A DNA stretch of 16,844 nt from Caedibacter taeniospiralis (GTDB taxonomy: Bacteria; Pseudomonadota; Gammaproteobacteria; Francisellales; Francisellaceae): the NCBI RefSeq assembly GCF_002803295.2, contig NZ_PGGB02000016.1, positions 1-16,844 of the forward strand. The letters are read 5' to 3'. How positions within the stretch are numbered: the stretch's first letter is position 1; each line of letters begins with the position of its first letter. Made by a program: the position numbers and the translations under genes. Shown here piece by piece: positions 1 to 16,844 of the stretch. The notes beneath the pieces were generated by a model. It was not told the origin of the DNA, made no database searches, and was given only the letters and a program-made list of their open reading frames with translations.

Positions 1-167
1 GCTGAGAATGTTCGGTACAGGTGCCCAGGTAGTGGGTTTTTGAAGATGTTTAAAGGATATAAGATGTAGATACTTGAATACTTTGAGCGAAGAATATTGC
101 GGATTGTAGTCACTGTGTTAGTTTTGAATTTTAAATGTTTAATTGTGTGTTGAGTTATTTTAAATTT

Positions 168-195
168 AACATTCATAATTAAACATTCAAAATTG
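168..195 (+). other. 5' half of the 16S processing (RNase III-type) stem
   Basis: aacattcataattaaacattcaaaattg matches the reverse complement of 1871-1898 (tgatgttgaatttttaatgttgaatgtt) at 22 of 28 positions. The two segments bracket the 16S gene. Confidence 0.45.
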
Positions 196-222
196 ATATA
201 AGTGGTTATGATCTAAGGATTT

Positions 223-1858
<1,636 letters not shown>

Positions 1859-1870
1859 AAGGTACGAGTA

Positions 1871-1898
1871 TGATGTTGAATTTTTAATGTTGAATGTT
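1871..1898 (+). other. 3' half of the 16S processing stem
   Basis: Complementary to 168-195 and lies immediately downstream of the 16S 3' end. Confidence 0.45.
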
Positions 1899-1975
1899 GA
1901 ATTTTTGATGTTTGAAGTACGAAAGAAATTAAGAAAGAGCGAGAAGTATTTGAGTGTTTACAAATGATGTTTTTT

Positions 1976-2088
1976 CTAGAGACTAGAAACTAGAGACTAG
2001 AAACTAGAAACTAGAAACTAGAGACTAGAGACTAGAGACTAGAAACTAGAATACTTCTAGAAACTAGTCTCTAGTCTCTAGTATCTAG
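1976..2088 (+). repeat. Core-less heptamer array/hairpin in the 16S-tRNA-Ile spacer
   Basis: 11 consecutive forward units (ctagaga/ctagaaa/ctagaat, 1976-2052) are followed by acttctag aaactag tctctag tctctag tatctag (2053-2088). The distal part folds back around the palindrome ctagaa-tac-ttctag. Confidence 0.9.
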
Positions 2089-2089
2089 T

Positions 2090-2166
<77 letters not shown>

Positions 2167-2308
2167 TCTAGAGACTAGTGTCAAGAGACTAGAAACTAGG
2201 GATTGAATCTTGCTGTGCGAGATGATTTTTTAAATGAATCATCGCGAAGCGATTCGAGTCTGGTTTCTAGTTTCTAGAGTAAGCGCAGCGAGCGTTCTAG
2301 TATCTAGA
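2167..2308 (+). repeat. Heptamer-armed element with conserved core, spacer copy A
   Basis: Left arm tctagagactag..gagactagaaactag (2167-2199). Core 2200-2263. Right arm tttctagtttctag...ttctagtatctagag (2264-2308). Identical by eye to 2385-2526. Confidence 0.9.
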
Positions 2309-2384
2309 GGGGCCATAGCTCAGCTGGGAGAGCGCCTGCTTTGCACGCAGGAGGTCAGGAGTTCGATCCTCCTTGGCTCCACCA
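2309..2384 (+). tRNA. tRNA-Ala (anticodon TGC), CCA encoded
   Basis: Acceptor ggggcca/tggctcc with the G3:U70 identity pair. Anticodon arm cctgc-ttTGCac-gcagg. T-arm ggagttcgatcctcc. Confidence 0.96.
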
Positions 2385-2526
2385 TCTAGAGACTAGTGTC
2401 AAGAGACTAGAAACTAGGGATTGAATCTTGCTGTGCGAGATGATTTTTTAAATGAATCATCGCGAAGCGATTCGAGTCTGGTTTCTAGTTTCTAGAGTAA
2501 GCGCAGCGAGCGTTCTAGTATCTAGA
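2385..2526 (+). repeat. Heptamer-armed element with conserved core, spacer copy B (direct duplicate of 2167-2308)
   Basis: The same 142-nt string follows the CCA of tRNA-Ala, offset 218 nt from copy A. Confidence 0.9.
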
Positions 2527-2531
2527 GCCGA

Positions 2532-2543
2532 GATCTTTAACAA
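2532..2543 (+). promoter_or_regulatory. boxA-like antitermination element upstream of 23S
   Basis: gatctttaacaa versus the rrn boxA consensus gctctttaacaa, at the usual position in the spacer just 5' of 23S. Confidence 0.6.
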
Positions 2544-2566
2544 TTTATTATAGAGTAATGACCAAG
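2535..2566 (+). other. 5' half of the 23S processing stem
   Basis: ctttaacaatttattatagagtaatgaccaag pairs over all 32 nt with 6617-6648: 28 Watson-Crick pairs and 4 G-U pairs. Confidence 0.8.
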
Positions 2567-2726
2567 AGAATAAGCGCAAACGGCGGATGCCTTGGCAGTC
2601 AGAGGCGAGGAAAGACGTGATAGCCTGCGAAAAGCTTCGGGGAGCTGGCAAATAAGCATTGATCCGAAGATATCTGAATGGGGGAACCCACCTCACTCAT
2701 AAAGTGCTCAGCACTTTATTCATTTC

Positions 2727-2759
2727 GAGAAACTAGAGATTGGAAACTAGAAACTAGAG
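2727..2759 (+). repeat. Orphan one-armed heptamer tract inside an expanded 23S helix 9 region (expansion ~2691-2769)
   Basis: gagaaactagagattggaaactagaaactagag has no complementary arm nearby. It sits between cctcactc (2691-2698) and gagtgag (2757-2763). About 95 nt are extra relative to E. coli here. Confidence 0.7.
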
Positions 2760-2834
2760 TGAGTAGAGGGTGTAATTTGTGCATGAATGAGTATTTTAAG
2801 AGTGGGGTATCACTGACGTAAGTTAAGTGAGGCG

Positions 2835-2865
<31 letters not shown>

Positions 2866-3197
2866 TAGGAAAAGAAATCAACCGAGATTCCCTAAGTAGC
2901 GGCGAGCGAAGGGGGAAGAGCCTGGTATACTTTAGCATGTGAGTTAGTCGAACATTCTGGGAAGGATGACCATAGCAGGTGATAGTCCTGTAGACGAAAG
3001 CTTGGATGTGGAACTAGGTATACGAATAAGTAGGGCGGGACACGAGAAATCCTGTTTGAAGAAGGGGGGACCATCCTCCAAGGCTAAATACTACTGACTG
3101 ACCGATAGTGAACCAGTACCGTGAGGGAAAGGCGAAAAGAACCCCGATGAGGGGAGTGAAATAGAACCTGAAACCGTTTGCGTACAAGCAGTCAGAG

Positions 3198-3342
3198 CTA
3201 GAAACTAGAGACTAGAAACTAGAGACTAGAGATTAGGGGTTGAAGCGCTTCGCGATGATTAATTTACAAAAATAAATCATCTTGCAAAGCAAGATACGAC
3301 TCCTGGTTTCTAGTCTCTAGTTTCTAGTTTCTAGGAGACTAG
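3198..3342 (+). other. 23S intervening sequence at helix 25 (E. coli ~545): heptamer arms plus conserved core
   Basis: Insert lies between gcagtcagag and tgatggcgtaccttttgtataatggg. Left arm is ctagaaa ctagaga ctagaaa ctagaga ctagaga. The core starts ttaggggttgaagcgcttcgcgatgatt. Right arm is tttctag tctctag tttctag tttctag. Confidence 0.88.
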
Positions 3343-3762
3343 TGATGGCGTACCTTTTGTATAATGGGTCAGCGAGTTACTTTTAGTGGCGAGGATAACT
3401 GAATAAGGGATCCGTAGCGAAAGCGAGTTTTAATAGAGCGGACAGTCGCTAGGAGTAGACCCGAAACCGACGCGATCTATCCATGACCAGGTTGAAGGTT
3501 GGGTAACACCAACTGGAGGACCGAACCCGGTAATGTTGCAAAATTATGGGATGAGTTGTGGATCGGAGTGAAAGGCTAATCAAGCGCGGAGATAGCTGGT
3601 TCTCCCCGAAAACTATTTAGGTAGTGCCTTGTGAATGACTCGTTGGGGTAAAGCACTGTTTCGACTAGGGGGATTTTGCGATCTTACCGACTCGATGCAA
3701 ACTTAGAATACGACGAAGTTGAATCACGGGAGACACACGGCGGGTGCTAAGGTCCGTCGTGG

Positions 3763-3800
<38 letters not shown>

Positions 3801-3835
3801 GTTATCGCTAAGTGGGAAACGATGTGGGAAGGCAT

Positions 3836-3899
<64 letters not shown>

Positions 3900-3954
3900 G
3901 AGTCGGCCTGCGCGAAAGATTTAACGGGGCTAAGCGATACACCGAAGCTGCGGG

Positions 3955-4389
3955 ACTAGAGACTAGAGACTAGAAACTGGAGACTAGAGGAGATAAGATG
4001 CCGTATCACAATTTATCAGTATATCAGAAGGCATATCAGTTAGCGCTGGAGCTACACGTGGAGAGTATGAAGTGGCCGCGGATAGAACAGTGTGAGATTG
4101 GGAGTCAATTAAGGCGAGCGAGCAAATCCATATGTGCGAACATAGCGGAAGGGATGGGCAAGCAAGCGAGTGAAAAGGAAGTAAGAAGGTTTGTTCAGAT
4201 AGCGATAGGCTCTTGCGATGAATGCCGGGTGTGGCTGGATTTTGCAAGGGACTTAGGGTATATCGATCAGGAGAGTCATAGGGGCTACGATGAGAGGTAT
4301 TGCGAAGTTGGGCGAATGTTAAGAGGTATACAGAGAAGATATAGCTGATGTCTATTCTAGTATCTAGTTTCTAGTATCTAGTTTCTAGT
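3955..4389 (+). other. 23S intervening sequence at helix 45 (E. coli ~1170) carrying an ORF
   Basis: Insert lies between caccgaagctgcgg and ggtaggggagcgttctgtaagc. Left arm is actagag actagag actagaa actggag actagag. Right arm is ttctag tatctag tttctag tatctag tttctag. Confidence 0.9.
3998..4348 (+). CDS. Four-helix-bundle protein of the '23S rRNA intervening sequence protein' family (misnamed S23 ribosomal protein; Avd-like fold)
   Basis: Intact 116-aa ORF with SD gaggag 5 nt upstream of the ATG. Motifs Y..A..L......K.P....IG.QL.R.A.SI.ANIAEG and E....L....GYI are typical of this family. Its position in the helix 45 IVS matches known Leptospira/Coxiella cases. Confidence 0.85.
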   Translation: MPYHNLSVYQKAYQLALELHVESMKWPRIEQCEIGSQLRRASKSICANIAEGMGKQASEKEVRRFVQIAIGSCDECRVWLDFARDLGYIDQESHRGYDERYCEVGRMLRGIQRRYS

Positions 4390-4942
4390 CGGTAGGGGAG
4401 CGTTCTGTAAGCTTATGAAGGTGCATTGAGAAGTGTGCTGGAGGTATCAGAAGTGCGAATGCTGACATGAGTAACGATAAATAAGTGAGATTCTTATTGG
4501 CCGAAAACCCAAGGTTTCCTACGCAATGTTAATCAACGTAGGGTAAGTCGGCGCCTAAGGCGAATCCGAAGGGAGTAGTCGATGGGAAACAGGTTAATAT
4601 TCCTGTACCGATGGTAGTTGCGATGGAGAGACGGAGAAAGCTAGGTCTGCCTGGCGGATGGTAGTCCAGGTGAAAGCGTGTAGGTAGTGCACTTAGGCAA
4701 ATCCGGGTGTATGATGATCTGAGGCGTGAGAGGGAACAGGGCTCTACGGGGTTCTGCCAAGAGATTGATGCTCGGCTTCCAGGAAAAGCTTCTAAGCATA
4801 AATTACCATTGACCGTACTGTAAACCGACACTGGTGGGTGGGTAGAGAATACCAAGGCGATGAGAGAACCCAGGTGAAGGAACTAGGCAAAATGACACCG
4901 TAACTTCGGGAGAAGGTGTGCCTCATTAGGGTGAAGGACTTG

Positions 4943-5042
4943 CCTGACCACTAAATTCTATGATGGATGAAAGCTGTTGAGAGTTGTAGAGATAGACAAT
5001 TTGTTGATAGCCTGTTGTAGGACGTGGAATTTAGTGGTCAGG
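4943..5042 (+). other. Expansion hairpin in 23S helix 63 with no heptamers
   Basis: 16-nt perfect inverted repeat cctgaccactaaattc (4943-4958) / gaatttagtggtcagg (5027-5042). The segment is absent from the corresponding E. coli region. Confidence 0.7.
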
Positions 5043-5182
5043 TGAACGTCTGGAGCGTGAAGAGGTTGCAAATACCAGGTGGCTGCGACTGTTTACTAAA
5101 AACACAGCACTCTGCGAACTCGGAAGAGGAAGTATAGGGTGTGACGCCTGCCCGGTGCTGGAAGGTTAATTGAAGGGGTTAT

Positions 5183-5483
5183 CCTACCACTTAATTATTT
5201 TGGAGTTTGATATGTATTGTGTATACGTGATTTATTCGAAAGAATTAGATAGTTTTTACTTGTGGGTTATAGTGAAAACCTAAGGAAAAGGATTGATTCG
5301 CATAAGTCGGGTAGAAGTAGATATACAAGCCGAACGAGAGATTGGATTCTTGTCTACTACGAAGCTTACGCAAGTGAAAAGCTTGCTAGGTTAAGAGAAG
5401 CTAAATTAAAGCGAGCGAATCGAATGAGGAGTTTGTTGTATAAAGGCTTAAGAGAAGAAATATCAGAGTAATTAAGTGGTAGG
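5183..5483 (+). other. 23S insertion at the helix 68 tip (E. coli ~1870) bounded by a 15-bp stem and carrying a GIY-YIG ORF
   Basis: ggggttat | cctaccacttaatta ... taattaagtggtagg | agaagctctggatcgaagcccc. In E. coli the same hairpin is closed by gcgcaagc. The inverted repeats are 5183-5197 and 5469-5483. Confidence 0.85.
5212..5471 (+). pseudogene. Small GIY-YIG (URI-domain, YhbQ/COG2827-like) nuclease, frameshifted
   Basis: ATG at 5212 with ggag 6 nt upstream encodes MYCVYVIYSKELDSFY and stops at 5281. The rest (GYSENLRKRIDSHKSGRSRYTSRTRDWILVYYEAY...) is in another frame (5262-5471). One extra T in the T5 run at 5253-5257 would give a continuous 87-aa ORF. Confidence 0.8.
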
Positions 5484-5506
5484 AGAAGCTCTGGATCGAA
5501 GCCCCA

Positions 5507-5588
<82 letters not shown>

Positions 5589-6007
5589 CGATGGCCACAC
5601 TGTCTCCATCTGGGACTCAGTGAAATTGAAATCGCTGTGAAGATGCAGCGTACCCGCGGTTAGACGGAAAGACCCCGTGAACCTTTACTATAGCTTTGCA
5701 CTGGACTTTGAGAATATTTGTGTAGGATAGGTGGGAGACTAAGAGATTCGTACGCTAGTATGGAAGGAGTCGACGTTGAAATACCACCCTGATATTTTTG
5801 GAGTTCTAACTCAGACGAGAGTCGAGGACAGTGTATGGTGGGTAGTTTGACTGGGGCGGTCTCCTCCTAAAGAGTAACGGAGGAGTACGAAGGTGCACTC
5901 GGCGCGGTCGGAAATCGCGCCAAGAGTATAAAGGCAAAAGTGCGCTTAACTGAGAGAGTGACGGCTCGATCAGGTACGAAAGTAGGTCTTAGTGATCCGG
6001 TGGTTCT

Positions 6008-6063
<56 letters not shown>

Positions 6064-6089
6064 TCCTCCCAAGAGTTCATATCGACGGA

Positions 6090-6170
<81 letters not shown>

Positions 6171-6338
6171 TGGTACGCGAGCTGGGTTTAGAACGTCGTG
6201 AGACAGTTCGGTCCCTATCTGCCGTGGGCGTAGGAGATTTGAGAGGGTTTGTTCCTAGTACGAGAGGACCGGAATGAACGAACCGCTGGTGTTTGGGTTG
6301 TCTCGCCAGAGGCATAGCCCAGTAGCTACGTTCGGAAT

Positions 6339-6371
<33 letters not shown>

Positions 6372-6394
6372 AGCCTCAAGATGAGATCTCCCGT

Positions 6395-6526
6395 CTAGAG
6401 ACTAGAAACTAGAGACTAGAAACTAGGAGTTGAGTCTTGCTTTGCAAGATGGGTTGTTTTTTATAAATCAATTCATCGCGAAGCGATTCAAGCTCTAGTT
6501 TCTAGTCTCTAGTTTCTAGTCTCTAG
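6395..6526 (+). other. 23S intervening sequence at helix 98 (E. coli ~2795): heptamer arms plus conserved core
   Basis: Insert lies between gatgagatctcccgt and cttaagggttgttgaagactacgacgttgatagg. 6395-6426 is the exact reverse complement of 6495-6526 (32 bp). Confidence 0.9.
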
Positions 6527-6616
6527 CTTAAGGGTTGTTGAAGACTACGACGTTGATAGGCTGGCTGTAGAAGTGCAGTAATGTATGAAGCTAACCAGTA
6601 CTAATTGCCCGAGAGA

Positions 6617-6648
6617 CTTGGTTATTACTCTATGATAGATTGTTAGAG
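6617..6648 (+). other. 3' half of the 23S processing stem
   Basis: cttggttattactctatgatagattgttagag is complementary to 2535-2566. Confidence 0.8.
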
Positions 6649-6664
6649 CTTTCTGCTCGCAGGT

Positions 6665-6782
6665 TACCTGATGAAAATAGCGACTGTGAACCACCTGATT
6701 CCATTCCGAACTCAGAAGTGAAAACAGTTAGCGTCGATGATAGTGTGGCATTCGCCATGTGAAAGTAGAACATCATCAGGTA
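6665..6782 (+). rRNA. rrf: 5S ribosomal RNA
   Basis: Helix I tacctgatga/tcatcaggta. Conserved ccgaactcagaagtgaaa and gtagtgtgg-like blocks. Confidence 0.93.
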
Positions 6783-6791
6783 TTTTATTTG

Positions 6792-6816
6792 AAAGGCACC
6801 TCAGGGTGCCTTTTTT
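6792..6816 (+). terminator. Rho-independent terminator of the rrn operon
   Basis: ggcacc-tcag-ggtgcc hairpin (6795-6810) followed by tttttt. Confidence 0.8.
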
Positions 6817-7031
6817 CGTTTCTGTAACTTGAGAATTGTCTTTTGTTCTATGATCTCATCTGTGAATCTGGGACATACTCTTTGCATTATCGACTGAGGA
6901 TGTTGTAACATTGACCCTTAAGTTGCGTAATCGGTTTTTGCTTTCATTAGCTTCGGTTGCTAAATACTGAATCCTGAATCCTTTGCTACTCAATGTAGTA
7001 AGTAAAAGAACAACATAAAAGCGGAGTATTG

Positions 7032-7649
7032 ATGTCACCAGAGCATATCGCACTTATTCAACAATGGGGGTATTGGCTGATGTTTGGCGCAGCCATTATT
7101 GAGGGTGAAACTTTTTTGGTGTTGGGTGGTGTGGCTGCATCTGCTGGGATGCTTGATTTAGGGTGGATTATTTTACTGTCAATCATTGGATGTTTGCTTC
7201 ATGATAGTGTTTTATTTTATTTAGGGCGTTATATTGGCCCAAAAATACTAATACGCAAACCTAATTGGCAACCTATGGTTGATCGAATTAGTGTGATGAT
7301 TGATAAATATAATTTCTGGCTCATTCTTGGGTTTCGCTTTGCCTATGGTTTGAGAACAATTATTCCTTTTGCCTTGGGGATGAGTAAGATTTCTAATATG
7401 AAATTTTTCATTTTTGATACGTTTGGGGCAGTTGTCTGGGTGTTGGTTTTTCTGCTTGGTGGGTATTATTTTGGGAGTGTGCTTGAAATTGTCTTGCATA
7501 AGTTGGCACTCACACACTTAGCTAGAAAACACTGGGTTATTTCAATTATTGTTTTGTTTAGTATAATCTTTGCCATCAGTTTCTTGTTCGTGAGATTGTG
7601 GAAAAGACAAGCACGAAAGAGACAACTTAAGACCGAGCTGGAAGTGTAA
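7032..7649 (+). CDS. dedA: DedA/SNARE-associated family inner-membrane protein
   Basis: Multi-TM ORF with the family N-terminal pattern WGYWLMFGAAIIEGETFLVLGG...DSVLFYLGRYIG and F.YGLRT. ggag lies 5 nt before the ATG at 7032; a TTG at 7029 is also possible. Confidence 0.8.
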   Translation: MSPEHIALIQQWGYWLMFGAAIIEGETFLVLGGVAASAGMLDLGWIILLSIIGCLLHDSVLFYLGRYIGPKILIRKPNWQPMVDRISVMIDKYNFWLILGFRFAYGLRTIIPFALGMSKISNMKFFIFDTFGAVVWVLVFLLGGYYFGSVLEIVLHKLALTHLARKHWVISIIVLFSIIFAISFLFVRLWKRQARKRQLKTELEV

Positions 7650-7650
7650 C

Positions 7651-7959
7651 ATGTCGGATATTCAAATCCATTTGGATTCTAAACAAGTCGGATTGGAGAA
7701 GTATTTACCGTTTGTCAAACAAGGTGCTTTAATGACGAGCATTGATCAGCCATTAAAGTTTGGTGAGGAGCACAGGCTAACGGTTAAATTGCCAGAGTTA
7801 AAGCAGGAGATTTCCTGTGATGTGCGTGTTGTCTGGATAAGCGGTGATGGTCATCAGGAAAAGAAAAAATATGGGCTTCAGTTTTTGGGCGATGAAGGGT
7901 TTGAACTAAATCAGGTATTAGAAAATTATCTGGTTGGGTTGCTAAAACATAATGAATAG
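7651..7959 (+). CDS. pilZ: PilZ-domain protein (type IV pilus assembly PilZ-like)
   Basis: 102 aa, start coupled to the dedA stop (taacatg). Resembles Pseudomonas PilZ: YLPFVKQGAL (YMPFI..GGLF), VRVVWIS, YGLQF, LENYLVG. Confidence 0.65.
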   Translation: MSDIQIHLDSKQVGLEKYLPFVKQGALMTSIDQPLKFGEEHRLTVKLPELKQEISCDVRVVWISGDGHQEKKKYGLQFLGDEGFELNQVLENYLVGLLKHNE

Positions 7960-7988
7960 CAGTCATTGCGGCAAGGGAATATAAAAAA

Positions 7989-9347
7989 ATGGCAAAAGCG
8001 AAAACAAATTATGTTTGTCAATCCTGTGGGGCGGTGTCACCAAAATGGCAGGGTCAGTGCTCTGATTGCCTCGAGTGGAATACTTTGATTGAAACCCAGC
8101 TCAATCTCATAAAGTCGCAAAGCACTAAGGTTGGTTATGCAGCGGTGGAGGCGAAAGTCCAAAGGCTCAATGAGGTTTCATTAGCTGAATATCCCCGCAT
8201 TCACTCTCCTTTTGATGAATTTGATCGAGTGATGGGAGGCGGTATTGTGCCAGGTTCCGTCACTCTTATCGGTGGAGATCCAGGGATAGGTAAGTCTTCA
8301 ATTTTATTGCAGATTATGACGGTTCTATCTTTAAAATACAGTGCGCTTTACATTACAGGCGAGGAATCACTAGAGCAGGTGGCATTAAGGGCCAGGCGAA
8401 TGCAGTTGCCAAATGAACATCTTTTACTAATGAGTGAAACCAATGTTGGCGCAATATGCAGGTATATTGAAACCCATCGCCCGCAACTTGTCGTGGTTGA
8501 CTCCATTCAAACGATGCAAATCGAAGATTTACAATCTGCGCCAGGCGGTGTGGCACAAGTTAGAGAATCTGCAAGTTTATTGACGCAAACAGCAAAGCAT
8601 TTAAACTGTGCAGTATTTCTAGTAGGACATGTCACTAAATCTGGTGAAGTGGCAGGACCTCGCGTCCTTGAACATATTGTTGATAGTGTGGTCTTTATCG
8701 AAGGACAGACCGATGGGCGCTATCGGATGGTCAGAGCAATGAAAAATCGCTTTGGAGCGGTGAATGAGCTGGGTGTGTTTGCGATGACGGATAAGGGCAT
8801 GCGTGAAATAAAAAACCCTTCTGCTATTTTTTTGAATCGCGCCGAAGATGATATTTCTGGGAGTGTGATCATTGCTATATGGGAGGGTACAAGACCCATT
8901 CTTGTGGAAGTTCAGGCGTTAGTCAGTGAAAATGGATATGGTCAGCCCAGACGTTTGGCACTTGGTTTGGATCCAAATCGTGTGTCTATGCTTTTAGCAA
9001 TTATGCAGCGTCATTTAAGTGTGCAACTTGGAAATTATGATGTTTTTATCAACATCGTAGGCGGGATTAAGGTCAATGAAACCAGCATTGATTTGGCTAT
9101 TATTGCAGTTATCCTGTCAAGTCTATATAACCGACCGATTGCAAAAGACTGGATTATTGTGGGTGAGGTTGGTTTATCTGGTGAAATTCGTCCAGTGCCT
9201 TACGGTCAAGAGCGATTGCTCGAGGCGCAAAAGCATGGCTTCAAACAGGCGATCGTGCCTTACAGTAATTTACCGAAAAAAGATATTGGGATGAAGGTTC
9301 ATGCGATTAAAAAGCTTAATGAATTAAAAGAAATGATTGCACATTAG
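7989..9347 (+). CDS. radA: DNA repair protein RadA/Sms
   Basis: N-terminal zinc finger YVCQSCG...CSDC, Walker A GGDPGIGKSS, the RadA motif KNRFG, and a Lon-protease-like C-terminal domain. 452 aa. Confidence 0.95.
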   Translation: MAKAKTNYVCQSCGAVSPKWQGQCSDCLEWNTLIETQLNLIKSQSTKVGYAAVEAKVQRLNEVSLAEYPRIHSPFDEFDRVMGGGIVPGSVTLIGGDPGIGKSSILLQIMTVLSLKYSALYITGEESLEQVALRARRMQLPNEHLLLMSETNVGAICRYIETHRPQLVVVDSIQTMQIEDLQSAPGGVAQVRESASLLTQTAKHLNCAVFLVGHVTKSGEVAGPRVLEHIVDSVVFIEGQTDGRYRMVRAMKNRFGAVNELGVFAMTDKGMREIKNPSAIFLNRAEDDISGSVIIAIWEGTRPILVEVQALVSENGYGQPRRLALGLDPNRVSMLLAIMQRHLSVQLGNYDVFINIVGGIKVNETSIDLAIIAVILSSLYNRPIAKDWIIVGEVGLSGEIRPVPYGQERLLEAQKHGFKQAIVPYSNLPKKDIGMKVHAIKKLNELKEMIAH

Positions 9348-9369
9348 TGCCATTAATTAGTGACTCCAG

Positions 9370-11451
9370 TCAGTGAGTGACGGCAGCATGGCTTGTTTCA
9401 CTAAGCGCCTGCTCAATGATTGCTAATGCTTGAGATAGCTCAGCGTCGCTAATATTCAGCGGACTCAGTAAACGTAGCACGTGTTTATGACTACCTGAGC
9501 TAAGTAGAATAAGACCATGGTTTAGGGCTTTACTGATAAAGCTTTTGAGTAGATCAGGATTAGGATTTTGATCACGGTCAACAAACTCAACACCGAGCAT
9601 CGCACCCAGACCACGAATTTCGCCAATGAATGAATGATTCAATTTCTGTTTGGTGAAAAAATCCCTGAATGTTTGCCCAAGTTTAAGCGCTTTGTCTGCG
9701 AGTTTCTCCTCTGCGAAAACTTCAAGTGATGCAATAGCTGCAGCACAGGTAACTGGGTTGCCTGAGTTTGTTCCTCCCAAAGAAGCAGGTGGCATGCCAT
9801 TAAACAAAGACTTTTTGACAGTCAAAGCGCTCAGTGGTAAACCAGATGCCAGAGATTTACCCATCACCAGAATGTCAGGCGCACAATGATAATACTCCAT
9901 CGCAAAAAGTTTTCCTGTGCGGCAAAAGCCACTTTGAATTTCATCGGCAATGAGCACAATACCATGTTGATCGCATAAGGTGCGTAATTATTGCATCGCT
10001 TCAATACTGGCAGGGATAAAACCGCCTTCACCAAGCTCAGGTTCAATGATAATAGCCGCAATATCACTAAATGAAACCTGGTTGATATTTAACGCCTCTA
10101 AAGCATGTTTAAAGCTTTCCAAATCACAACCTGCGTCAGGGTAAGCCAAGCGATAGATGTTATTAAACAGCTCACCAAAGCCTGCCTTATAAGGTTTAAC
10201 TTTAGCAGTCAGCGTCATGCTCATAAAAGTGCGCCCATGAAAAGCCCCATCAAAGCACACGACTGCAGAGCGTTTTGTTGCAAAGCGTGCCACTTTAATG
10301 GCATTTTCAACGGCTTCAGTGCCACTGTTGCATAGCATCGTTTGTTTTTCAAAATCACCAGGTGTCAGTTGATTAAGTTTCTCTGCAAGCCTTAAGTAAG
10401 GTTCATGAATCATGACATGAAAGCACGGCTGGATATAGCGTTTCGCTTGTTCAATAATGGCATGGACCACTTTAGGATGGTTGTGACCAATATTCATGGC
10501 TCCAATGCCAGCTGCGAAGTCAATATAAGTTTTACCACTGATATCTGTTAGTGTGGCGCCACGTGCCTTATCGACGCAAATCCTAGTGTTGTTAGCAAGT
10601 CCGGGAGGCACTTCAGTTTCGCGCAAATGCCATAAAGAATTACTGTCCATCACGTTGACATTGGTGCTTTCAAAGATTTTATCAGCAGAAGCCGCGACAA
10701 ACCCTTGATAAAGTTTACCTGTGTGATCAGGGTAGCGCTTGGCAAATTCATAATAGCAGCAAGGAATTTCTTTGGAGCCTTCAACAAATTCAACTTTGAT
10801 CGTGCCTGACTTGGTGCTGGATTGCTCCAGTAGTTCTTTTGCCGTGCCTTTAATTTCACCGCCGGAGCTGTTTAAGGCAAAGCCATGTTGCTTTAAAAAA
10901 GTATTGACTTCATGCACCTCACTGAATTGGTCAAGTGCATTAATAAACACAGTGAAGTGATTGGCGCGATAGCCAAAGACGTAAAACCATGCGGCATACT
11001 CAGACTCTGCTAACAGCTTCTGATACACGTCGTAACCTGGTTTACCCCAGCAATTACCAGAGATGAGAAGTTTTTCGGGATTATGAAGCAGTGATTGTGG
11101 GATCTGATCAATGCAGGCTTTAATAGTTTTTTGCGCAAAGGGGCTTAGCTTTTCTAGTAGCAGTTGACTAATAAAAACCTTGGGTTCCATGGGGTCATTC
11201 TGCTCATAGTGCTTAGCGAATAACTTTTTCGCTTCAAAGTGATACTGTCCTTTTTCAAGGTAGCCTTCGGCAATAAAGGGTCTGGCCAGGACATCAACGC
11301 TGATGCGAGGATCATTAATCGTGCGAAGGGCGATGTGATCGTTAATAACCGTGGCATTGTGGTCGCAAAAAAGATCATAAATCTTCTGCACATGTCGGTT
11401 AGCCGTAACATATTGCTGCCATAGCTGGTCTAAAACTGCGATTTGCGTCAT
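9370..11451 (-). pseudogene. DUF1338/HglS-like 2-oxoadipate dioxygenase-decarboxylase domain fused to a class-III (GabT-like) aminotransferase, interrupted by an in-frame TAA at 9988-9990
   Basis: N-terminal ~290 aa carry DUF1338 motifs (INDHIALRT, ANHFTV, YYEFAKR, IFEST). The rest aligns with GabT: ...[45 protein letters not shown]...MGKSLASGLP. The PLP lysine lies downstream of the stop. aggag lies 7 nt before the ATG at 11451. ORF-track pieces are 9988-11508 and 9370-9957. Confidence 0.8.
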
Positions 11452-11453
11452 CT

Positions 11454-12953
11454 TTACTCTCCTAATGAAAATTTGATTCCTTGTGCAAGGGGTAAGTCCT
11501 TGCTCCAATTCATGGTAACGGTTTGGCGACGCATGTAAGCCTTCCAGGCGTCGGAGCCAGCTTCCCGACCACCACCTGTGTGCTTCTCGCCACCAAAGGC
11601 ACCACCGATTTCAGCACCTGAAGTGCCAATATTCACGTTGGCAATGCCACAATCACTGCCAGCGTAAGATAAAAATTTCTCAGAATGATCAATGCGTTGG
11701 GTAAAAATTGCTGATGACAACCCGTGATCAACCTGGTTATTAATGGTAATGGCATGCTCAATGTCTTCAAAGGGCATCACAAATAAAATGGGGCAGAAGT
11801 TTTCCTGGTTGACAATATCCCAATCAGGTTTTACTTCAATTAAAGTCGGTTCAACATAATTACCTGGTCTATTAATGACATTGCCACCAAACAGGACTTT
11901 GCCGCCTAGTGTCTTAGCGCGAGAGATAGCCTTTTTGTAAACTTCCACAAGACCTTGATCAATCAAAGGCCCCATCAGGTTTTTAGTATCTAAAGGATCA
12001 CCGACAGTAATTTGCTTATACGCATTTTGTAAACGTTTGATAACATCCTGATATATGTTTTTATGGACAAGCAGGCGACGCAAGGAAGTACAGCGCTGTC
12101 CCGCGGTACCAACGGCACCAAAAACCACAGCAGGAATCGCCAGCTTTAAATCAGCAGAGTCATCAATAATTGCTGCATTATTGCCACCTAACTCTAAAAG
12201 CGATTTACCAAAACGCTCGGCAACACGCGCACCAACCTCGCGACCAACTGCCGTTGAACCTGTGAAGGATAATAATGCCACGCGCTTATCAGCAACAAGT
12301 GCCTTAGAAACCTCAACACTTTTGGAAACAACAGAAGTGAAAACCAAAGGAAAGTTGTGCTCTTTAGCCACGCGATCACAAATCTCCTGAATGGCTAGTG
12401 CGCAAAGTGGCGTCTTGGGCGATGGGTTCCAAACGACTGTGTTGCCACAAATTGCCGCAATGAACGCATTCCATGACCAAACGGCAACAGGGAAATTATA
12501 AGCGGAGATGACACCAACGACGCCAAGTGGATGCCATTGCTCAAACATCCGATGATCTGGGCGTTCAGAGTGCATCGTTTTGCCGTAAAGCATGCGCGCC
12601 TGACCCACCGCAAAATCTGCCATGTCGATCATCTCCTGCACTTCGCCATCGCCTTCCTGTTTTGATTTGCCCATTTCTAATGAAACAAGGCTGCCTAGCT
12701 GGTCTTTGTTTTTTCTCAACTCTTCACCAATAAGTCGCACAAGCTCAGCACGTTTAGGGGCGGGGATTTTGCGCCATTCATAAAATGCCTGTTGTGCTTC
12801 AGTAATTGTTTGCTCAAGGTGAGAGACTCCAAGGCTTGGTACCTTTGCCAGAAGCGTATTATTGGAGGGATTAAAACTCTCAATATATTCGCCTGTATTA
12901 TGTTTGGCGGCGTATTGTGTCAGCTTTTCGGTGTAGTGTGTCATACAAGTCAT
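11454..12953 (-). CDS. amaB: ALDH7-type L-2-aminoadipate-6-semialdehyde (piperideine-6-carboxylate) dehydrogenase
   Basis: Long near-collinear similarity to ALDH7A1/AmaB as recalled: [99 protein letters not shown]. ggag lies 9 nt before the ATG at 12953; the ORF track extends to a TTG at 12971. Confidence 0.9.
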
Positions 12954-12974
12954 CGCACTTTTCTCCGTCAATTT

Positions 12975-13268
12975 TTAGATATATTCAGTTTTGTTGCGCC
13001 TGGTTGTGGCAACTTGCTTTGGGTCATTCATAAAACCATCCAGGAAGTTATAACGATAATATTGACCAAAACGATTGTCCATCATTTGCTGTAAAGAAAT
13101 GTTCTCTTGCTTAGCAAAGCCTGCCTTGAAATGTTTTTCCTTCAGTGGGACTAGTGTTAAGGTCCGTGCGCTGAGCCGCCACTTGACAGATTTACAAAGT
13201 GCCGAAAAATAAAATATTTGCACTTTTTGTGGTTTTTGACTGTTCAGGCATTCCAAAATGAGTCTCAC
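12975..13268 (-). CDS. Hypothetical 97-aa ORF; possibly the 3' remnant of a gene upstream of amaB
   Basis: Only positional evidence: its stop is 21 nt upstream of the amaB ATG. No recognisable motifs. Confidence 0.2.
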   Translation of the reverse strand: MRLILECLNSQKPQKVQIFYFSALCKSVKWRLSARTLTLVPLKEKHFKAGFAKQENISLQQMMDNRFGQYYRYNFLDGFMNDPKQVATTRRNKTEYI

Positions 13269-13302
13269 CTTGTATAATACACCTCATTTTACTACCGACA
13301 CT

Positions 13303-13318
13303 AGTTCTTATAAGAACT
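13303..13318. promoter_or_regulatory. Perfect 16-bp palindrome immediately upstream of tnpA
   Basis: agttctta|taagaact, ending 7 nt before the tnpA ATG. A tataat hexamer lies at 13273-13278. Confidence 0.35.
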
Positions 13319-13325
13319 TTAAACC

Positions 13326-16325
13326 ATGGATGAATCTCCAATTTTATCTGCTAAAGAAATTGTCTTTTGTATGACAAAGAAAAGTCCGTTAAACCAAATT
13401 GCATGCGCAATTATGCTAGGGTATTTTAAGATACACCTTAGATTCCCATTGTCTGATGAAGTTTTTTTACTTCTCAAGTTGTCTTCAAAAGTTGCAACTG
13501 AATTAGAGCTAGAACAACAGAATATTTTTGAGTTTGATTGGAGTAGTCGTACTGTAGAAAGATATCGCAACAATATTAGACAGCTGCTAGGCTATAGGGA
13601 AGCTACAAATGAGGACGCTTCACCATACATTAATTATTTGCAAAATGAGGTATTACCAAAATTCCCTTCCAAAGAGATTATATTAGCGCAGTCACGTTTA
13701 TATTTTAAAAGGCATAAAATTGAGCAATTCTCCGTAAAACAAATAAACCGTTATATAACTTCAGCACAGCAACAATTTGAGCAATCCTTCTTTCAAAGTA
13801 TTTTTGATAACTTAACTCCAGACGATTGTTATTTGATTGATCAAATTCTCACAACCAGTACTGAGAAAATTGAGAAGGTAAAGGGTGATGATATTATTGC
13901 CTTGGTTGATCTTAAAAAGGATATTCCTGGTGCACGGTTAAAAAATGTCAATTTAGCCATAAAAAAGATTGAGCAACTCATTAAAATAAAGCTCTCCAAA
14001 GATCTATATATCAATAAAAATCGCAAGCTTTTAATAAAGTATTATGATCGAATTATGGCTTTGGCTCCAAGCAATATACTTGAGTTTAGTACCATTGCAA
14101 AATATGCAACTATGGCGATATTTTGCCACATCAGACTACAATATATGCTCGATGATTTAACAGACACTTTTACTAAGTTAATTCATAGCATGCGAACCAA
14201 TGCTGAAAAAAGTGTGCGTGATTATGTACTTGGAGAAGTGGAACGTGTTGGCGGAAAGTTTAATATTCTAAAACAGATTGCCATGATAGCAGTGAATCAC
14301 CCTAAAGGGGTGATTGAAGATAAAATATACCCAGAAGTCTCAAAAGAGAAGTTGATAGAAATTATTGAGGATTTAGAAAAGCGAGGATCATGGTTTAATG
14401 AGCAAGTTCAAGACAAAATTAAATCAACGTATTCGCATGGTAATCGTACCGTTTTACTGGCAATTTTAAGGGCTTTATCATTTAGAGAAGAACATCTTGA
14501 CTACAAGCCAATTATTAAGGCTATTGAGTTTATTAATAAACATTGGGATTCGTCGGATACTGAAAGCTATCTAACTATGCCGCCTATTGAAAATATCATA
14601 CCAGAAATTTGGCAAGCGGCTTTGTTATCAGATGGCAAACAAAATAGTATGAATAAGTACAAATATGAGGTTATCGTCTTGGAGCAGCTTAAAGCTTTTT
14701 TAGGATATAAGGCTATTTGGATTGAAAATAGTTACCGTTACCGCAATCCAAAAGATGATCTGCCTTTGGATTTTAAAGAAAACAAGCAAAAATATCTCGA
14801 AATGCTAAATTTGCCTAATCAAGGCAATTCATTTACAAAGCAATTGAAAAAACTGCTGTCAGATAGTTTATCGAGTTTAAATACCAATATTGTGAATAAT
14901 GATAAAGTAACCATTAAATCAAGTAAGGTGAATAAAAACTTCTCCGTCAGTCCTTCAGATGCTCAAAAAGAACCACAAAATATTGTAGAGCTGCAGAAAG
15001 AAATTATTAAACGGTGGTCAAGCATTAATTTAATCGATATTTTGAAAGAGTGTGATTTATTAATCAACTTTACTCAAGAAATGGATACGATTGGTAAAAA
15101 CAGCAATATTAATGCCACTGATCTAAGAAAAAGACTTTTACTTTGCTTATATGGCATAGGTAGTAACACGGGGCTAAAAAGAATTAGTATTGCCAATGGT
15201 GATGTTAGCTATAGTGATTTGCGTTATGTAAAGAGCAGGTTTATCAATAAAATCAATGTCAGAAATGCCATTCGTGCCGTGGTGGATAAGGTGCTAGAGA
15301 TTCGAGACCCAGAAGTTTGGGGAGTTGCGACTACCTCTGTTGCCTGTGACTCAACTCAAATCAGTGCCTGGGATCAGAATTTAATGAATGAATGGCATCA
15401 TCGTTATAAAGGCAAAGGTGTGATGATTTACTGGCATGTTGATAAAAAAGCCCTCTGTATTTACTCACAACTAAAAACATGTTCTTCCTCTGAAGTGGGG
15501 TCAATGATTAAGGGCGTCATAGATCATGATACTAAAATGAACATGGATCGTGTTTTTGTAGACACTCATGGTCAGAGTGTTCTTGGGTTTGCCGTTGGGT
15601 ACATGCTTGATTTTGACTTGTTGCCAAGGTTTAAAGCTATCAATAAACAAAAGATATGTGGCGTCACTTCATCAGATAAACAAAAGTATGAAAATATATC
15701 ACTGATAATGAAAGGTACAATCAACTGGAAAATAATAGAGGAAAACTATGAAGAGGTTGTTAAACACATCATAGCCTTGAAATTAGGTATCATAGAGCCA
15801 TCTGTTTTAGTTAAGCGCTTTAGTAAAGATAACTTTAACCACCCTGTCTACAAGGCGTTGATGGAAATAGGCAAAGCTAATAAAAGTATATTCCTGTGTA
15901 AATATCTTCAAGATGAGAATCTGAGAATTGAAATTAATGAAGGTTTAAATGTTGTTGAACGCTTAAACCATGTCATGGATTTTATTTTTTATGGGAAGCT
16001 AGGAGAGCTAAAGACTAATCAGACAGATGATCAGGAACTGTCAGTGCTCTGCTTACATTTATTACAAGCTTGCATGGTGTATATCAACACTTTAATTATT
16101 CAGCAGGTATTATCAGAGCCTCATTGGAATGGAAGACTTACACCAGAAGATTACCGTGCACTTACTCCATTACTCTCAACGCATATTAATCCTTATGGCC
16201 TATTCCCGATTGATTTTAATGAGCGTTTAGCAATTTATACCAACTTACTCAAAGAGGCAGAAAATGACTACCATTCAACGAACACCTGTGAGAGAGAAAG
16301 CAAAACAGCTCTCGAAACAGCTTAA
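13326..16325 (+). CDS. tnpA: Tn3-family DDE transposase (DUF4158 N-terminal region plus DDE_Tnp_Tn3 catalytic domain)
   Basis: 999-aa intact ORF. Catalytic-region signatures are VACDSTQ, FVDTHGQS, LN.VERLNH. KGTINWKIIEENYEEV matches the family pattern KGKIN..LI.ENW. Confidence 0.9.
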   Translation: MDESPILSAKEIVFCMTKKSPLNQIACAIMLGYFKIHLRFPLSDEVFLLLKLSSKVATELELEQQNIFEFDWSSRTVERYRNNIRQLLGYREATNEDASPYINYLQNEVLPKFPSKEIILAQSRLYFKRHKIEQFSVKQINRYITSAQQQFEQSFFQSIFDNLTPDDCYLIDQILTTSTEKIEKVKGDDIIALVDLKKDIPGARLKNVNLAIKKIEQLIKIKLSKDLYINKNRKLLIKYYDRIMALAPSNILEFSTIAKYATMAIFCHIRLQYMLDDLTDTFTKLIHSMRTNAEKSVRDYVLGEVERVGGKFNILKQIAMIAVNHPKGVIEDKIYPEVSKEKLIEIIEDLEKRGSWFNEQVQDKIKSTYSHGNRTVLLAILRALSFREEHLDYKPIIKAIEFINKHWDSSDTESYLTMPPIENIIPEIWQAALLSDGKQNSMNKYKYEVIVLEQLKAFLGYKAIWIENSYRYRNPKDDLPLDFKENKQKYLEMLNLPNQGNSFTKQLKKLLSDSLSSLNTNIVNNDKVTIKSSKVNKNFSVSPSDAQKEPQNIVELQKEIIKRWSSINLIDILKECDLLINFTQEMDTIGKNSNINATDLRKRLLLCLYGIGSNTGLKRISIANGDVSYSDLRYVKSRFINKINVRNAIRAVVDKVLEIRDPEVWGVATTSVACDSTQISAWDQNLMNEWHHRYKGKGVMIYWHVDKKALCIYSQLKTCSSSEVGSMIKGVIDHDTKMNMDRVFVDTHGQSVLGFAVGYMLDFDLLPRFKAINKQKICGVTSSDKQKYENISLIMKGTINWKIIEENYEEVVKHIIALKLGIIEPSVLVKRFSKDNFNHPVYKALMEIGKANKSIFLCKYLQDENLRIEINEGLNVVERLNHVMDFIFYGKLGELKTNQTDDQELSVLCLHLLQACMVYINTLIIQQVLSEPHWNGRLTPEDYRALTPLLSTHINPYGLFPIDFNERLAIYTNLLKEAENDYHSTNTCERESKTALETA

Positions 16326-16844
16326 GCAAGAAAATCCAGATTATAATTACTTGAGGGAGCTCTTTAGGCATATACGCAAAGAACTTCATGTTGAAGTTGA
16401 TAAAGGGACGACAAACAAGCTGCCTTACGTGCCCACTGAAGAGGAGATCAGTCAATACTATAAAGTTGTGTGGCAATCAAGAAATATGAAGTATGTTGTA
16501 ATCGTTAAAACACTGCTTTATACAGGAGTAAGAGTATCTGAACTCATTAATATTAAGCTAAACGATATTGATTTGGACAGCTGCCAAATTCGTATTAATA
16601 AAGGCAAAGGCGATAAAGACAGAATAGTTCCTTTTCCAAAATCATTTATGGAAGTATTGGCTGTATGCATAAATGTTGTGGAAAGAAAATCAACTCCATC
16701 TATTGTACTGAGCTGAAAAGCTCCCATTCAGATCGTATCTGTAAAATTAGAAAAAGACTTGAATGAAGGGGCTTGAGTATCCATTTCACCTCTTGGTTAA
16801 ACTCCAGATATTTCCTTCTGACCCACTTGGATGGCATTAGTGTT
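16264..16844 (+). pseudogene. Tyrosine (phage-integrase family) site-specific recombinase, decayed by several frame disruptions
   Basis: Frame 0 gives the box I region LLYTGVRVSELINIKLNDIDLD...INKGKGDKDRIVPFP, then stops at 16716. Fragments matching the following segments switch frames: IYCTELKSSHSDRICKIRKRLE* (16683-16766, +2), EGA*VSISP (frame 0), SRYFLLTHLDGISV (+2). The start overlaps the tnpA 3' end by 62 nt. Confidence 0.7.

Follow-up and report, generated by a model that had tools for sequence, protein, structure and literature searches.

What does the long insert in helix 45 of the 23S ribosomal RNA (rRNA) of Caedibacter taeniospiralis carry, and how is the protein that it encodes related to the heptamer repeats that enclose it? 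The tip of this helix is a classical site of intervening sequences (IVSs) (PMC4990558), and for the 16,844-nt stretch that we analyzed (contig NZ_PGGB02000016.1, positions 1 to 16,844; hereafter the window) a sequence-only reading had pointed to an IVS in which an open reading frame (ORF) lies between heptamer arms of the kind that surround a non-coding core elsewhere in the operon. We confirmed a helix 45 insert with an intact gene between heptamer arms, and we consider it likely that this is a helix 45 IVS of 23S rRNA carrying a functional gene. Several elements with common arms form a family, in which the insert is the one that codes for a protein; the other members carry a small structured RNA core, or short hairpins, at other tips in the 16S rRNA, the spacer, and the 23S rRNA.

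Position and anatomy of the helix 45 insert

The window opens with a complete rRNA operon, in which the insert is placed as follows.

223-1858: 16S rRNA
2090-2163 and 2309-2381: two spacer transfer RNAs (tRNAs)
2560-6625: 23S rRNA gene (Rfam large subunit, LSU, match)
3954..4390, + strand: whole IVS, 437 nt, replacing the terminal hairpin of 23S helix 45 (E. coli ~1164-1185)
6667-6781: 5S rRNA

The 23S gene is 4066 nt long, as compared with the 2925 positions of the LSU model, and alignment with the E. coli 23S rRNA (our locus L001) assigned surplus sequence to six sites.

2690-2825: helix 9 region (E. coli 130-171)
3200-3327: helix 25 (E. coli 541)
3954-4377: helix 45 (E. coli 1162-1170)
4945-5049: E. 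coli 1731
5184-5478: E. coli 1865
6393-6526: helix 98 (E. coli 2786-2802)

Both this alignment and a direct comparison of the junctions place the insert in helix 45, as had been claimed: the flanks GCTGCGG and GGTAGGGGAGCGTTC are identical to those on either side of the helix 45 hairpin in the E. coli 23S rRNA, and the insert therefore replaces the tip of the helix. We found no sigma-70-like promoter or intrinsic terminator in 3700-4600, which fits transcription of the insert solely within the rRNA precursor. Its parts and immediate flanks are, from 5' to 3':

3947..3953, + strand: retained 5' strand of the helix 45 base, GCTGCGG, abutting the arm and pairing with 4391-4394 in the minimum-free-energy fold
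3954..3993, + strand: 5' arm, five purine-rich heptamers followed by AGATA (from repeat and inverted-repeat finding)
3987..3992, + strand: Shine-Dalgarno sequence GAGGAG, 5 nt before the ATG and overlapping the last unit, CTAGAGG
3998..4348, + strand: ORF of 116 aa with an ATG start, encoding a four-helix-bundle protein (23S_rRNA_IVP / TIGR02436)
4351..4390, + strand: 3' arm, the pyrimidine-rich complement (TCTATTC, TAGTATC, TAGTTTC, TAGTATC, TAGTTTC, TAGTC)
4391..4405, + strand: 3' strand of the helix 45 base and the conserved 23S sequence after it, GGTAGGGGAGCGTTC

The two arms, 40 nt each, 85% complementary, and 357 nt apart, are indeed built of heptamers: Tandem Repeats Finder returned a period of 7, with 5.1 copies at 3954-3989 and 4.9 copies at 4356-4389, i.e., about five units per side, and the units of the 5' arm (CTAGAGA, CTAGAGA, CTAGAAA, CTGGAGA, and CTAGAGG) are of a CTAGARA type. 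They are predicted to form a stem of ~37-43 bp that prolongs helix 45; 43 of the 50 positions in 3948-3997 pair with the 3' side in the minimum-free-energy fold, and the fold of 3940-4405 has a z-score of -7.1 relative to shuffles. The stop codon of the ORF lies 2 nt ahead of the 3' arm. As to the ORF being equipped with a Shine-Dalgarno sequence, this part of the sequence-only reading stands insofar as GAGGAG is present and is partly formed by the last repeat unit, and GGAG is found at the same position in the relatives L125, L064, and L003; however, the fold prediction has it paired within the arm stem (unpaired probabilities 0.00, 0.01, 0.33, 1.0, 0.05, and 0.00 along its six positions), which makes translation less simple than the mere presence of the motif implies.

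The encoded protein and selection on its gene

The 116-aa product matched both models of the IVS-protein family far above their cut-offs (PF05635, 23S_rRNA_IVP: E = 7e-32, 110.2 bits versus 33.8; TIGR02436: E = 1.9e-30, 105.3 bits versus 24), in agreement with the family assignment made from the sequence. Its AlphaFold2 model is the expected four-helix bundle (mean pLDDT 96.4, pTM 0.89), for which Foldseek gave TM-scores of 0.92 to 2GSC, 0.84 to 2RLD, and 0.76 to 4DWL, the last being Avd, the accessory protein of a diversity-generating retroelement (DGR). A profile of 60 homologues likewise matched the Protein Data Bank (PDB) entries 2GSC (4.1e-16) and 2RLD (4.4e-9), each of which contains five chains. 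The structural kinship with Avd that had been proposed is thus borne out at the level of fold, while the matches to the Avd models remain below their cut-offs (NF033474, DivGenRetAVD: 24.6 bits versus 80; PF22296, bAvd: 21.2 bits versus 40, E = 4.3e-4). The protein is mildly basic (isoelectric point 8.3; relatives 8.4-9.7). A family motif, GxxRxxxSxxxNxxE, has been published (PMC3936711); R40, S44, N48, and E51 are present, and the position of the leading glycine is occupied by Q37, which is invariant in the 60-sequence alignment. An 87-aa ORF on the opposite strand (3984-4247) was taken as a by-product of the + strand gene.

A protein database search returned 905 homologues at E <= 1e-10, mostly on short contigs, and 30 residues are invariant among 60 aligned homologues. 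We retrieved the DNA of 13 relatives with 55-72% protein identity; all 13 lie between 23S sequences bracketing helix 45, as judged by blastn or flank sequence, and CTAGARA-type arms are present in every one of them. Helix 45 relatives at 42-50% identity, among them one on the Azospirillum lipoferum plasmid AZO_p2, use other heptamers, e.g., GTCAGAT, NTCAGRA, and GGACRGA.

Purifying selection on the ORFs of helix 45 IVSs is strong (dN/dS 0.04-0.09). The ratio of non-synonymous to synonymous substitution rates (dN/dS) was 0.039-0.056 in three pairs, for which the values are approximate because dS is saturated, and 0.086, at a dS of 0.8, in the pair L131/L134.

One helix 45 IVS, at L137, has intact heptamer arms and a frameshifted IVS-protein gene (3082-3405), the first ~82 aa of which match L130 before the two diverge.

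Elements with the same arms elsewhere in the operon

The double heptamer CTAGARACTAGARA, with at most one mismatch, occurs 45 times in the window, always within 300-6526, as compared with 0.03 occurrences expected from shuffles. These repeats belong to the following elements in addition to the helix 45 insert.

292..419, + strand: sister element in the 16S rRNA, 128 nt, near the 16S 5' end, with five-unit arms around a non-coding core of ~70 nt (nhmmer 5.2e-17)
1976..2089, + strand: cargo-free hairpin in the 16S-tRNA spacer, with 11 units in its 5' arm and ~5 in its 3' arm
2163..2281, + strand: sister element, internal transcribed spacer (ITS) copy a, directly after the first spacer tRNA
2381..2499, + strand: sister element, ITS copy b, a duplicate of copy a that follows the second spacer tRNA directly
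2726-2760: partial one-sided heptamer array in the helix 9 insert (~135 nt)
3198..3334, + strand: sister element in 23S helix 25, after E. coli 541
6395..6526, + strand: sister element in 23S helix 98, E. coli 2786-2802
324-392, 2199-2265, 2417-2483, 3232-3306, and 6422-6500: copies of the core

By alignment, a homologous core of ~70 nt is shared by five of these elements (16S, the two spacer copies, helix 25, and helix 98; nhmmer E-values 1e-13 to 1e-18). When drawn by eye, it consists of a closing stem and three hairpins in a cloverleaf-like four-way junction, and there are compensating changes between the copies (e.g., TCGC/GCGA versus TCTTGC/GCAAGA); RNAalifold identified five core pairs changed on both sides. 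No Rfam family matched the core at its gathering score. We rejected derivation of the cores from the coding IVS by deletion, as the sequences just inside the arms are unrelated. Nhmmer found the core only in the window and in L124, to which pairwise alignment added one homologue, in L216.

Other genomes place the same arms around other cargo and at other sites. L003 has an armed spacer element with CTGGAGA units and a 161-nt insert at helix 25; L064 has armed elements at helix 25, in the spacer, and in a 560-nt hairpin adjoining the rRNA genes; and L216 has them at helix 25, helix 45, E. coli ~1865, and the 3' trailer, using the variant CAAGARA at every site. The L216 cargo at E. coli 1865 is homologous to the window core.

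The contigs L002 and L124 (the latter JACCEA011279781.1) belong to the same organism as the window, the protein being 99% identical. As compared with the window, L124 has 8 fewer heptamer units at 1976-2031 and is without the 218-nt spacer unit of element and tRNA (window 2161-2378) that is duplicated in the window; these differences could be real polymorphism or could reflect collapse of repeats in assembly. The helix 25 element of L124 carries the core type of the helix 98 and spacer elements, which is the most direct sign of exchange between sites. What counts against this interpretation is that the swap could have arisen through mis-assembly at the shared arms.

Separately, L124 shows a cluster of differences at ~3900-4300 (window 5712-6092), in an otherwise conserved region of 23S domain V, which suggests either that the metagenome assembly is chimeric or that there is another, divergent rRNA operon.

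The sequence-only reading had stressed modularity, i.e., identical arms around a non-coding core at several sites and around a gene at one, and had seen in it an exchange of cargo within one element family. The modular arrangement is present, with a homologous core at five other sites. The exchange of cargo is favored by the L124 swap and by L003, L064, and L216, although this evidence is indirect and mis-assembly could account for the swap. The interpretation as a whole is partly supported.

Conservation and strand bias of the arms

Among nine helix 45 loci in nine hosts, the arms are the best-conserved part of the element, above both the ORF and the surrounding rRNA. Mean identity was 0.90 over the first 33 nt of the 5' arm, a value that is partly inflated by the low complexity of repeat arms, as compared with 0.72 at codon positions 1+2 and 0.38 at third positions; the 23S domain V/VI sequences of the helix 45 hosts are 78-88% identical to the window (E. 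coli 86%, Azospirillum 82%). In all nine loci, the 5' arm is close to five units long. Since pairing alone would permit compensatory drift, the unit sequence and the arm length themselves appear to be constrained, and low complexity does not account for the persistence of one unit in different genomes.

The orientation of the arms is equally consistent, the purine-rich arm coming first, in rRNA sense, in every element. The sense duplex is more stable than the antisense duplex in five of the six elements, and nearly all G-U pairs belong to the sense strand; for the helix 45 arms, the sense duplex has -51.1 kcal/mol (37 bp including 3 G-U) and the antisense duplex -42.0. The purine-first order and the sense-stable duplexes with G-U pairs point to selection on the transcribed RNA and favor pairing at the RNA level.

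Repeat arrays around the protein family, and arrays without the gene

Whether in rRNA or elsewhere, the genes for relatives of the IVS protein are generally enclosed by complementary arrays with repeat units of 7-8 nt. We picked 81 loci solely by protein similarity, most of which lie outside rRNA, together with 331 control ORFs, and scored flank complementarity by local alignment, which separated the loci from the controls cleanly. In 76 of the 81 loci, the inverted complementarity of the flanks exceeded the 99th percentile of the control ORFs, and the flanks had a period of 7 or 8. Duplex free energy of the flanks was dropped as a measure, GC-rich control ORFs being equally low.

Soil relatives (~40% identity; metagenome contigs L135-L203) lie between sucD and ndk, co-oriented with them, and have complementary octamer arrays (GAAGTAAN, GGAAGTAA) on the two sides of the gene, as in the following examples.

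L167, 4064-5856: gene flanked by octamer arrays
L178, 2400-5846: gene flanked by octamer arrays

L178 and L193 hold a second copy of the gene, which in L178 is located between sucC and sucD. As many of the sucD-ndk loci represent one genomic position in related bacteria, they are not independent. Copies on cyanobacterial plasmids (L208, L210, L215) are found in cas6-cas4, cmr2-cmr3, and other runs of co-oriented genes; in most of them, the gene is preceded by short tandem repeats rich in purines and followed by the complement of these, while the arrays of L208 are direct rather than inverted, with AAAAGCT / AAAAGCC heptamers on both sides.

We also scanned one genome per species for arrays of three CTAGARA units and obtained at least 120 loci (L004-L123) from Acidobacteriota, Bacteroidota, Planctomycetota, Chloroflexota, Cyanobacteriota, Vibrionaceae, the candidate phyla radiation (CPR), and others, some genomes, such as Phycisphaerales CSMAG_1569, holding several. 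Four iterative rounds of hidden Markov model (HMM) searches found an IVS-protein gene within 8 kb in 7-8 of the 120 listed loci (~6%), and the notion that CTAGARA arrays always accompany such a gene was therefore rejected. The ORF of the family member directly abuts the array in four of the listed loci (L026, L050, L095, and L110), and many of the remainder are cargo-free hairpins or single arrays.

A model for the insert and its alternatives

In the model that we favor, the insert would be transcribed within the rRNA precursor, where the two arms of about five CTAGARA units would pair into a double-stranded RNA stem of ~37-43 bp that prolongs helix 45. RNase III would cut in this stem and free an RNA of ~400 nt, the 23S pieces remaining together in the ribosome. 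We infer this excision because RNase III cleavage has been mapped in Coxiella burnetii to the middle of the terminal stem, where the heptamer repeats sit (PMC4990558). The 116-aa protein would be made co-transcriptionally from the precursor, at a stage when the 3' arm does not yet mask the Shine-Dalgarno sequence, or alternatively from the excised RNA once the stem had opened.

Several points weigh against this model. With nearly all of the Shine-Dalgarno sequence predicted to pair within the arm stem, the folded RNA would be a poor template for translation; the pseudogene of L137 indicates that the protein can be lost; most dN/dS values are approximate and the arm identities partly inflated; and the low proportion of array loci with an IVS-protein gene nearby indicates that the arms need no protein in cis. 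Furthermore, the homologous ORF of C. burnetii gave no product in vitro unless a ribosome-binding site was added, and it was judged dispensable (PMC4990558). It could accordingly be argued, as has been proposed for C. burnetii, that the ORF is a decaying, unexpressed passenger and that only the IVS RNA matters: translation of the native C. burnetii IVS failed in vitro, and non-synonymous substitutions as well as a deletion of 176 bp distinguish its strains (Warrier et al. 2016, PMC4990558), to which the frameshift in L137 and the predicted pairing of the Shine-Dalgarno sequence can be added. For the window we consider this quite improbable, given an intact ORF with a strong GAGGAG 5 nt from its ATG, a dN/dS of 0.04-0.09 among helix 45 homologues, the 905 homologues at E <= 1e-10 with 30 invariant residues among 60, and a confidently predicted fold (pLDDT 96.4). 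The low dN/dS and the decay in L137, taken together, indicate a gene that is kept by selection in most lineages, yet is able to decay. The stem of the insert, as a near-perfect duplex of 37-43 bp, is of the type that RNase III normally cleaves, which speaks against the insert being a retained expansion segment that stays in the mature ribosome. The operon does bear several other large helix extensions, and the helix 45 tip is known to tolerate 23S discontinuity without loss of ribosome function (PMC4990558). However, the helix 45 IVSs studied elsewhere are excised by RNase III (PMC4990558), and selection on the protein is difficult to bring into line with an ORF that would have to be translated within a mature ribosome, so that we give retention as little credence as the passenger ORF. 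That the ORF is the Avd accessory protein of a DGR is effectively refuted at this locus, in spite of the weak PF22296 and NF033474 matches and the TM-score of 0.76 to 4DWL: both models were matched only beneath their curated thresholds (40 and 80 bits), the gene is embedded in an rRNA helix, and we found neither a reverse transcriptase domain in the eight other ORFs of the window (DedA, PilZ, RadA, aminotransferase, aldehyde dehydrogenase, Tn3 transposase, and integrase fragment among their products) nor a template/variable repeat pair in the window. Without a reverse transcriptase, the element is not a DGR.

A functional gene thus being favored, there is the question of whether its protein has anything to do with the arms. 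The arms might be a signal for processing or insulation only, with arrays that arise by replication slippage, are made uniform by gene conversion, and are kept as a good RNase III substrate, while the protein acts on some other target. To this we assign a serious weight, just short of an even chance, because arrays occur without the gene and because distant proteins share the unit: CTAGARA arrays and cargo-free hairpins are spread over at least 120 loci from many phyla, most of which lack an IVS-protein gene up to 8 kb away, and the distant family members L026, L050, and L110 have the same heptamer, so that the repeat unit is not strictly tied to a protein clade. Unit number also varies, by 8 units between near-identical strains (1976-2031) as well as among C. 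burnetii strains (PMC4990558), and one variant may prevail at all sites of a genome (CAAGARA in L216), as gene conversion would produce. Pairing alone, however, leaves unexplained why the unit and the five-unit length are shared by hosts with 78-88% rRNA identity and saturated synonymous sites, nor does it explain why the IVS-protein family in particular is found between such arrays in each of three samples drawn separately. Given that both the sequence and the length of the arms are constrained, and that gene and arrays are linked across the family, it is attractive to hypothesize that the protein binds the arms, and the confinement of the core to the window lineage and one other genome makes the arms a better candidate than the core for any action of the protein. 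In its most extended form, which we regard as unlikely, the IVS protein would be a trans-acting partner of the arms, a five-subunit ring recognizing five CTAGARA units, in the manner of TRAP on its repeated triplets, and controlling how every element with these arms folds, is processed by RNase III, or propagates. This would make the helix 45 IVS the autonomous member, and the core inserts the non-autonomous members, of a hitherto undescribed class of mobile cassettes. If so, such cassettes would colonize highly transcribed RNAs, i.e., rRNA helix tips and operon spacers such as sucD-ndk and cas6-cas4.

rRNA operons like that of the window are predicted to yield heavily fragmented 23S rRNA, and possibly fragmented 16S rRNA, and are prone to mis-assembly through the shared arms. 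The 16S insert at 292-419 would, if cut by RNase III, fragment the 16S rRNA, which is rare.

Other features of the window and its relatives

Two further extensions of the 23S rRNA were observed. The 295-nt insert at 5184-5478 (E. coli ~1865) has long non-heptamer arms (5174-5202 / 5464-5492) and a fold z-score of -6.3; we rejected a group I intron at this position, since no Rfam match was obtained down to E = 1 and the sequence folds as a long helix extension. At the same site, L216 has a heptamer-armed core element. The other is an extension of 105 nt at E. coli 1731 (window 4945-5049). L003 has two 23S inserts, at 7078-7756 (E. coli ~1928) and 7786-8051 (~1948), the first of which has an Rfam group I intron match and a LAGLIDADG ORF (7314-7730) within it; their layout resembles that of the C. 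burnetii 23S introns L1917 and L1951.

Downstream of the operon, two neighboring ORFs on the - strand (9370-9957 and 9988-11508) together make up a class III aminotransferase, a split that could be due to a frameshift or mark a pseudogene; the upstream aminotransferase ORF is fused to an HGLS (2-oxoadipate dioxygenase/decarboxylase) domain. A Tn3-family transposase of 999 aa (13326-16325), followed by a phage-integrase-family fragment (16264-16716), lies ~7 kb downstream of the operon and is unrelated to the insert.

Comparison with known systems

The closest counterpart is the helix 45 IVS of C. burnetii, which encodes S23p (CBU_2096; Afseth 1995; Warrier et al. 2016, PMC4990558). The two share the helix 45 site, a similar size (428-444 nt there, 437 nt here), terminal inverted repeats that form a stem, tandem heptamers upstream of the ORF, and the protein family; RNase III excision has been demonstrated there and would be expected here. 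The repeat unit in C. burnetii is GACAGAT, in two to three copies plus one degenerate copy, with a stem of 28 bp, as compared with five CTAGARA units and ~37-43 bp in the window, although the GTCAGAT, NTCAGRA, and GGACRGA units of the relatives at 42-50% identity resemble GACAGAT (Warrier et al., PMC4990558). Whereas the weak Shine-Dalgarno sequence AGAAGA of C. burnetii is removed by cleavage and the ORF was judged dispensable, the window has a strong GAGGAG 5 nt from the ATG, and the homologues of its ORF are under strong purifying selection. Moreover, no sister elements with shared arms were reported for C. burnetii. Heptamers around an IVS-protein ORF are therefore not new, having already been described in that species (PMC4990558), and, as the relatives in and outside rRNA show, such an architecture is not confined to the present element. 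As far as its citation in PMC4990558 goes, the work of Ralph and McClelland (1993) on Leptospira describes a similar combination of a helix 45 IVS with inverted repeats, a family protein, and fragmented 23S rRNA. The non-coding IVSs of Salmonella, Yersinia, and Campylobacter (helices 25 and 45) are likewise extended stem-loops at helix tips that are removed by RNase III (PMC4990558), but they are ~100 nt long and contain no ORF.

Among proteins, Xcc0516 (2GSC) and BT_0352 (2RLD) of the "S23 ribosomal protein" family have the same fold and belong to the same sequence family; of the published family motif, the 116-aa protein has the RxxxSxxxNxxE part, with Q37 in place of the leading G. Avd of the Bordetella phage DGR (4DWL) is a four-helix bundle of similar size with 14% sequence identity, and neither a reverse transcriptase nor a template/variable repeat accompanies the gene in the window. 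The Avd pentamer carries positive charge and acts together with structured RNA beside the template (bioRxiv 10.1101/2023.10.23.563531).

Pairs of transposons and miniature inverted-repeat transposable elements (MITEs) offer another parallel, having common ends around different cargo, with one member coding for a protein. Unlike in these pairs, the strand bias of the arms points to selection at the RNA level; the 116-aa product had no nuclease or recombinase match, and no target-site duplication was found at the junctions. Short tandem heptamers in transcribed intergenic regions resemble the short tandemly repeated repetitive (STRR) sequences of cyanobacteria. To our knowledge, tandem-heptamer arms have not been reported for the IVSs of Salmonella, Yersinia, and Campylobacter, nor have heptamer arms shared by several rRNA sites been described in Leptospira.

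The IVS site, the protein family, RNase III processing, and heptamers in one species are thus already known. In the literature that we could search, we found no general link of the protein family with flanking tandem repeats, only the C. burnetii paper (PMC4990558) having turned up, and we found no account of a five-unit arm conserved across distant hosts, of arms common to non-coding inserts in the 16S, spacer, and 23S, of strong purifying selection on an IVS-borne ORF, or of a gene family that generally lies between complementary 7-8-nt arrays. The question of what IVS proteins do dates from the early 1990s, and recognition of the repeat arms is a testable hypothesis for it; the window, with one coding and five or six non-coding elements that have the same arms in one operon, provides a natural experimental system.

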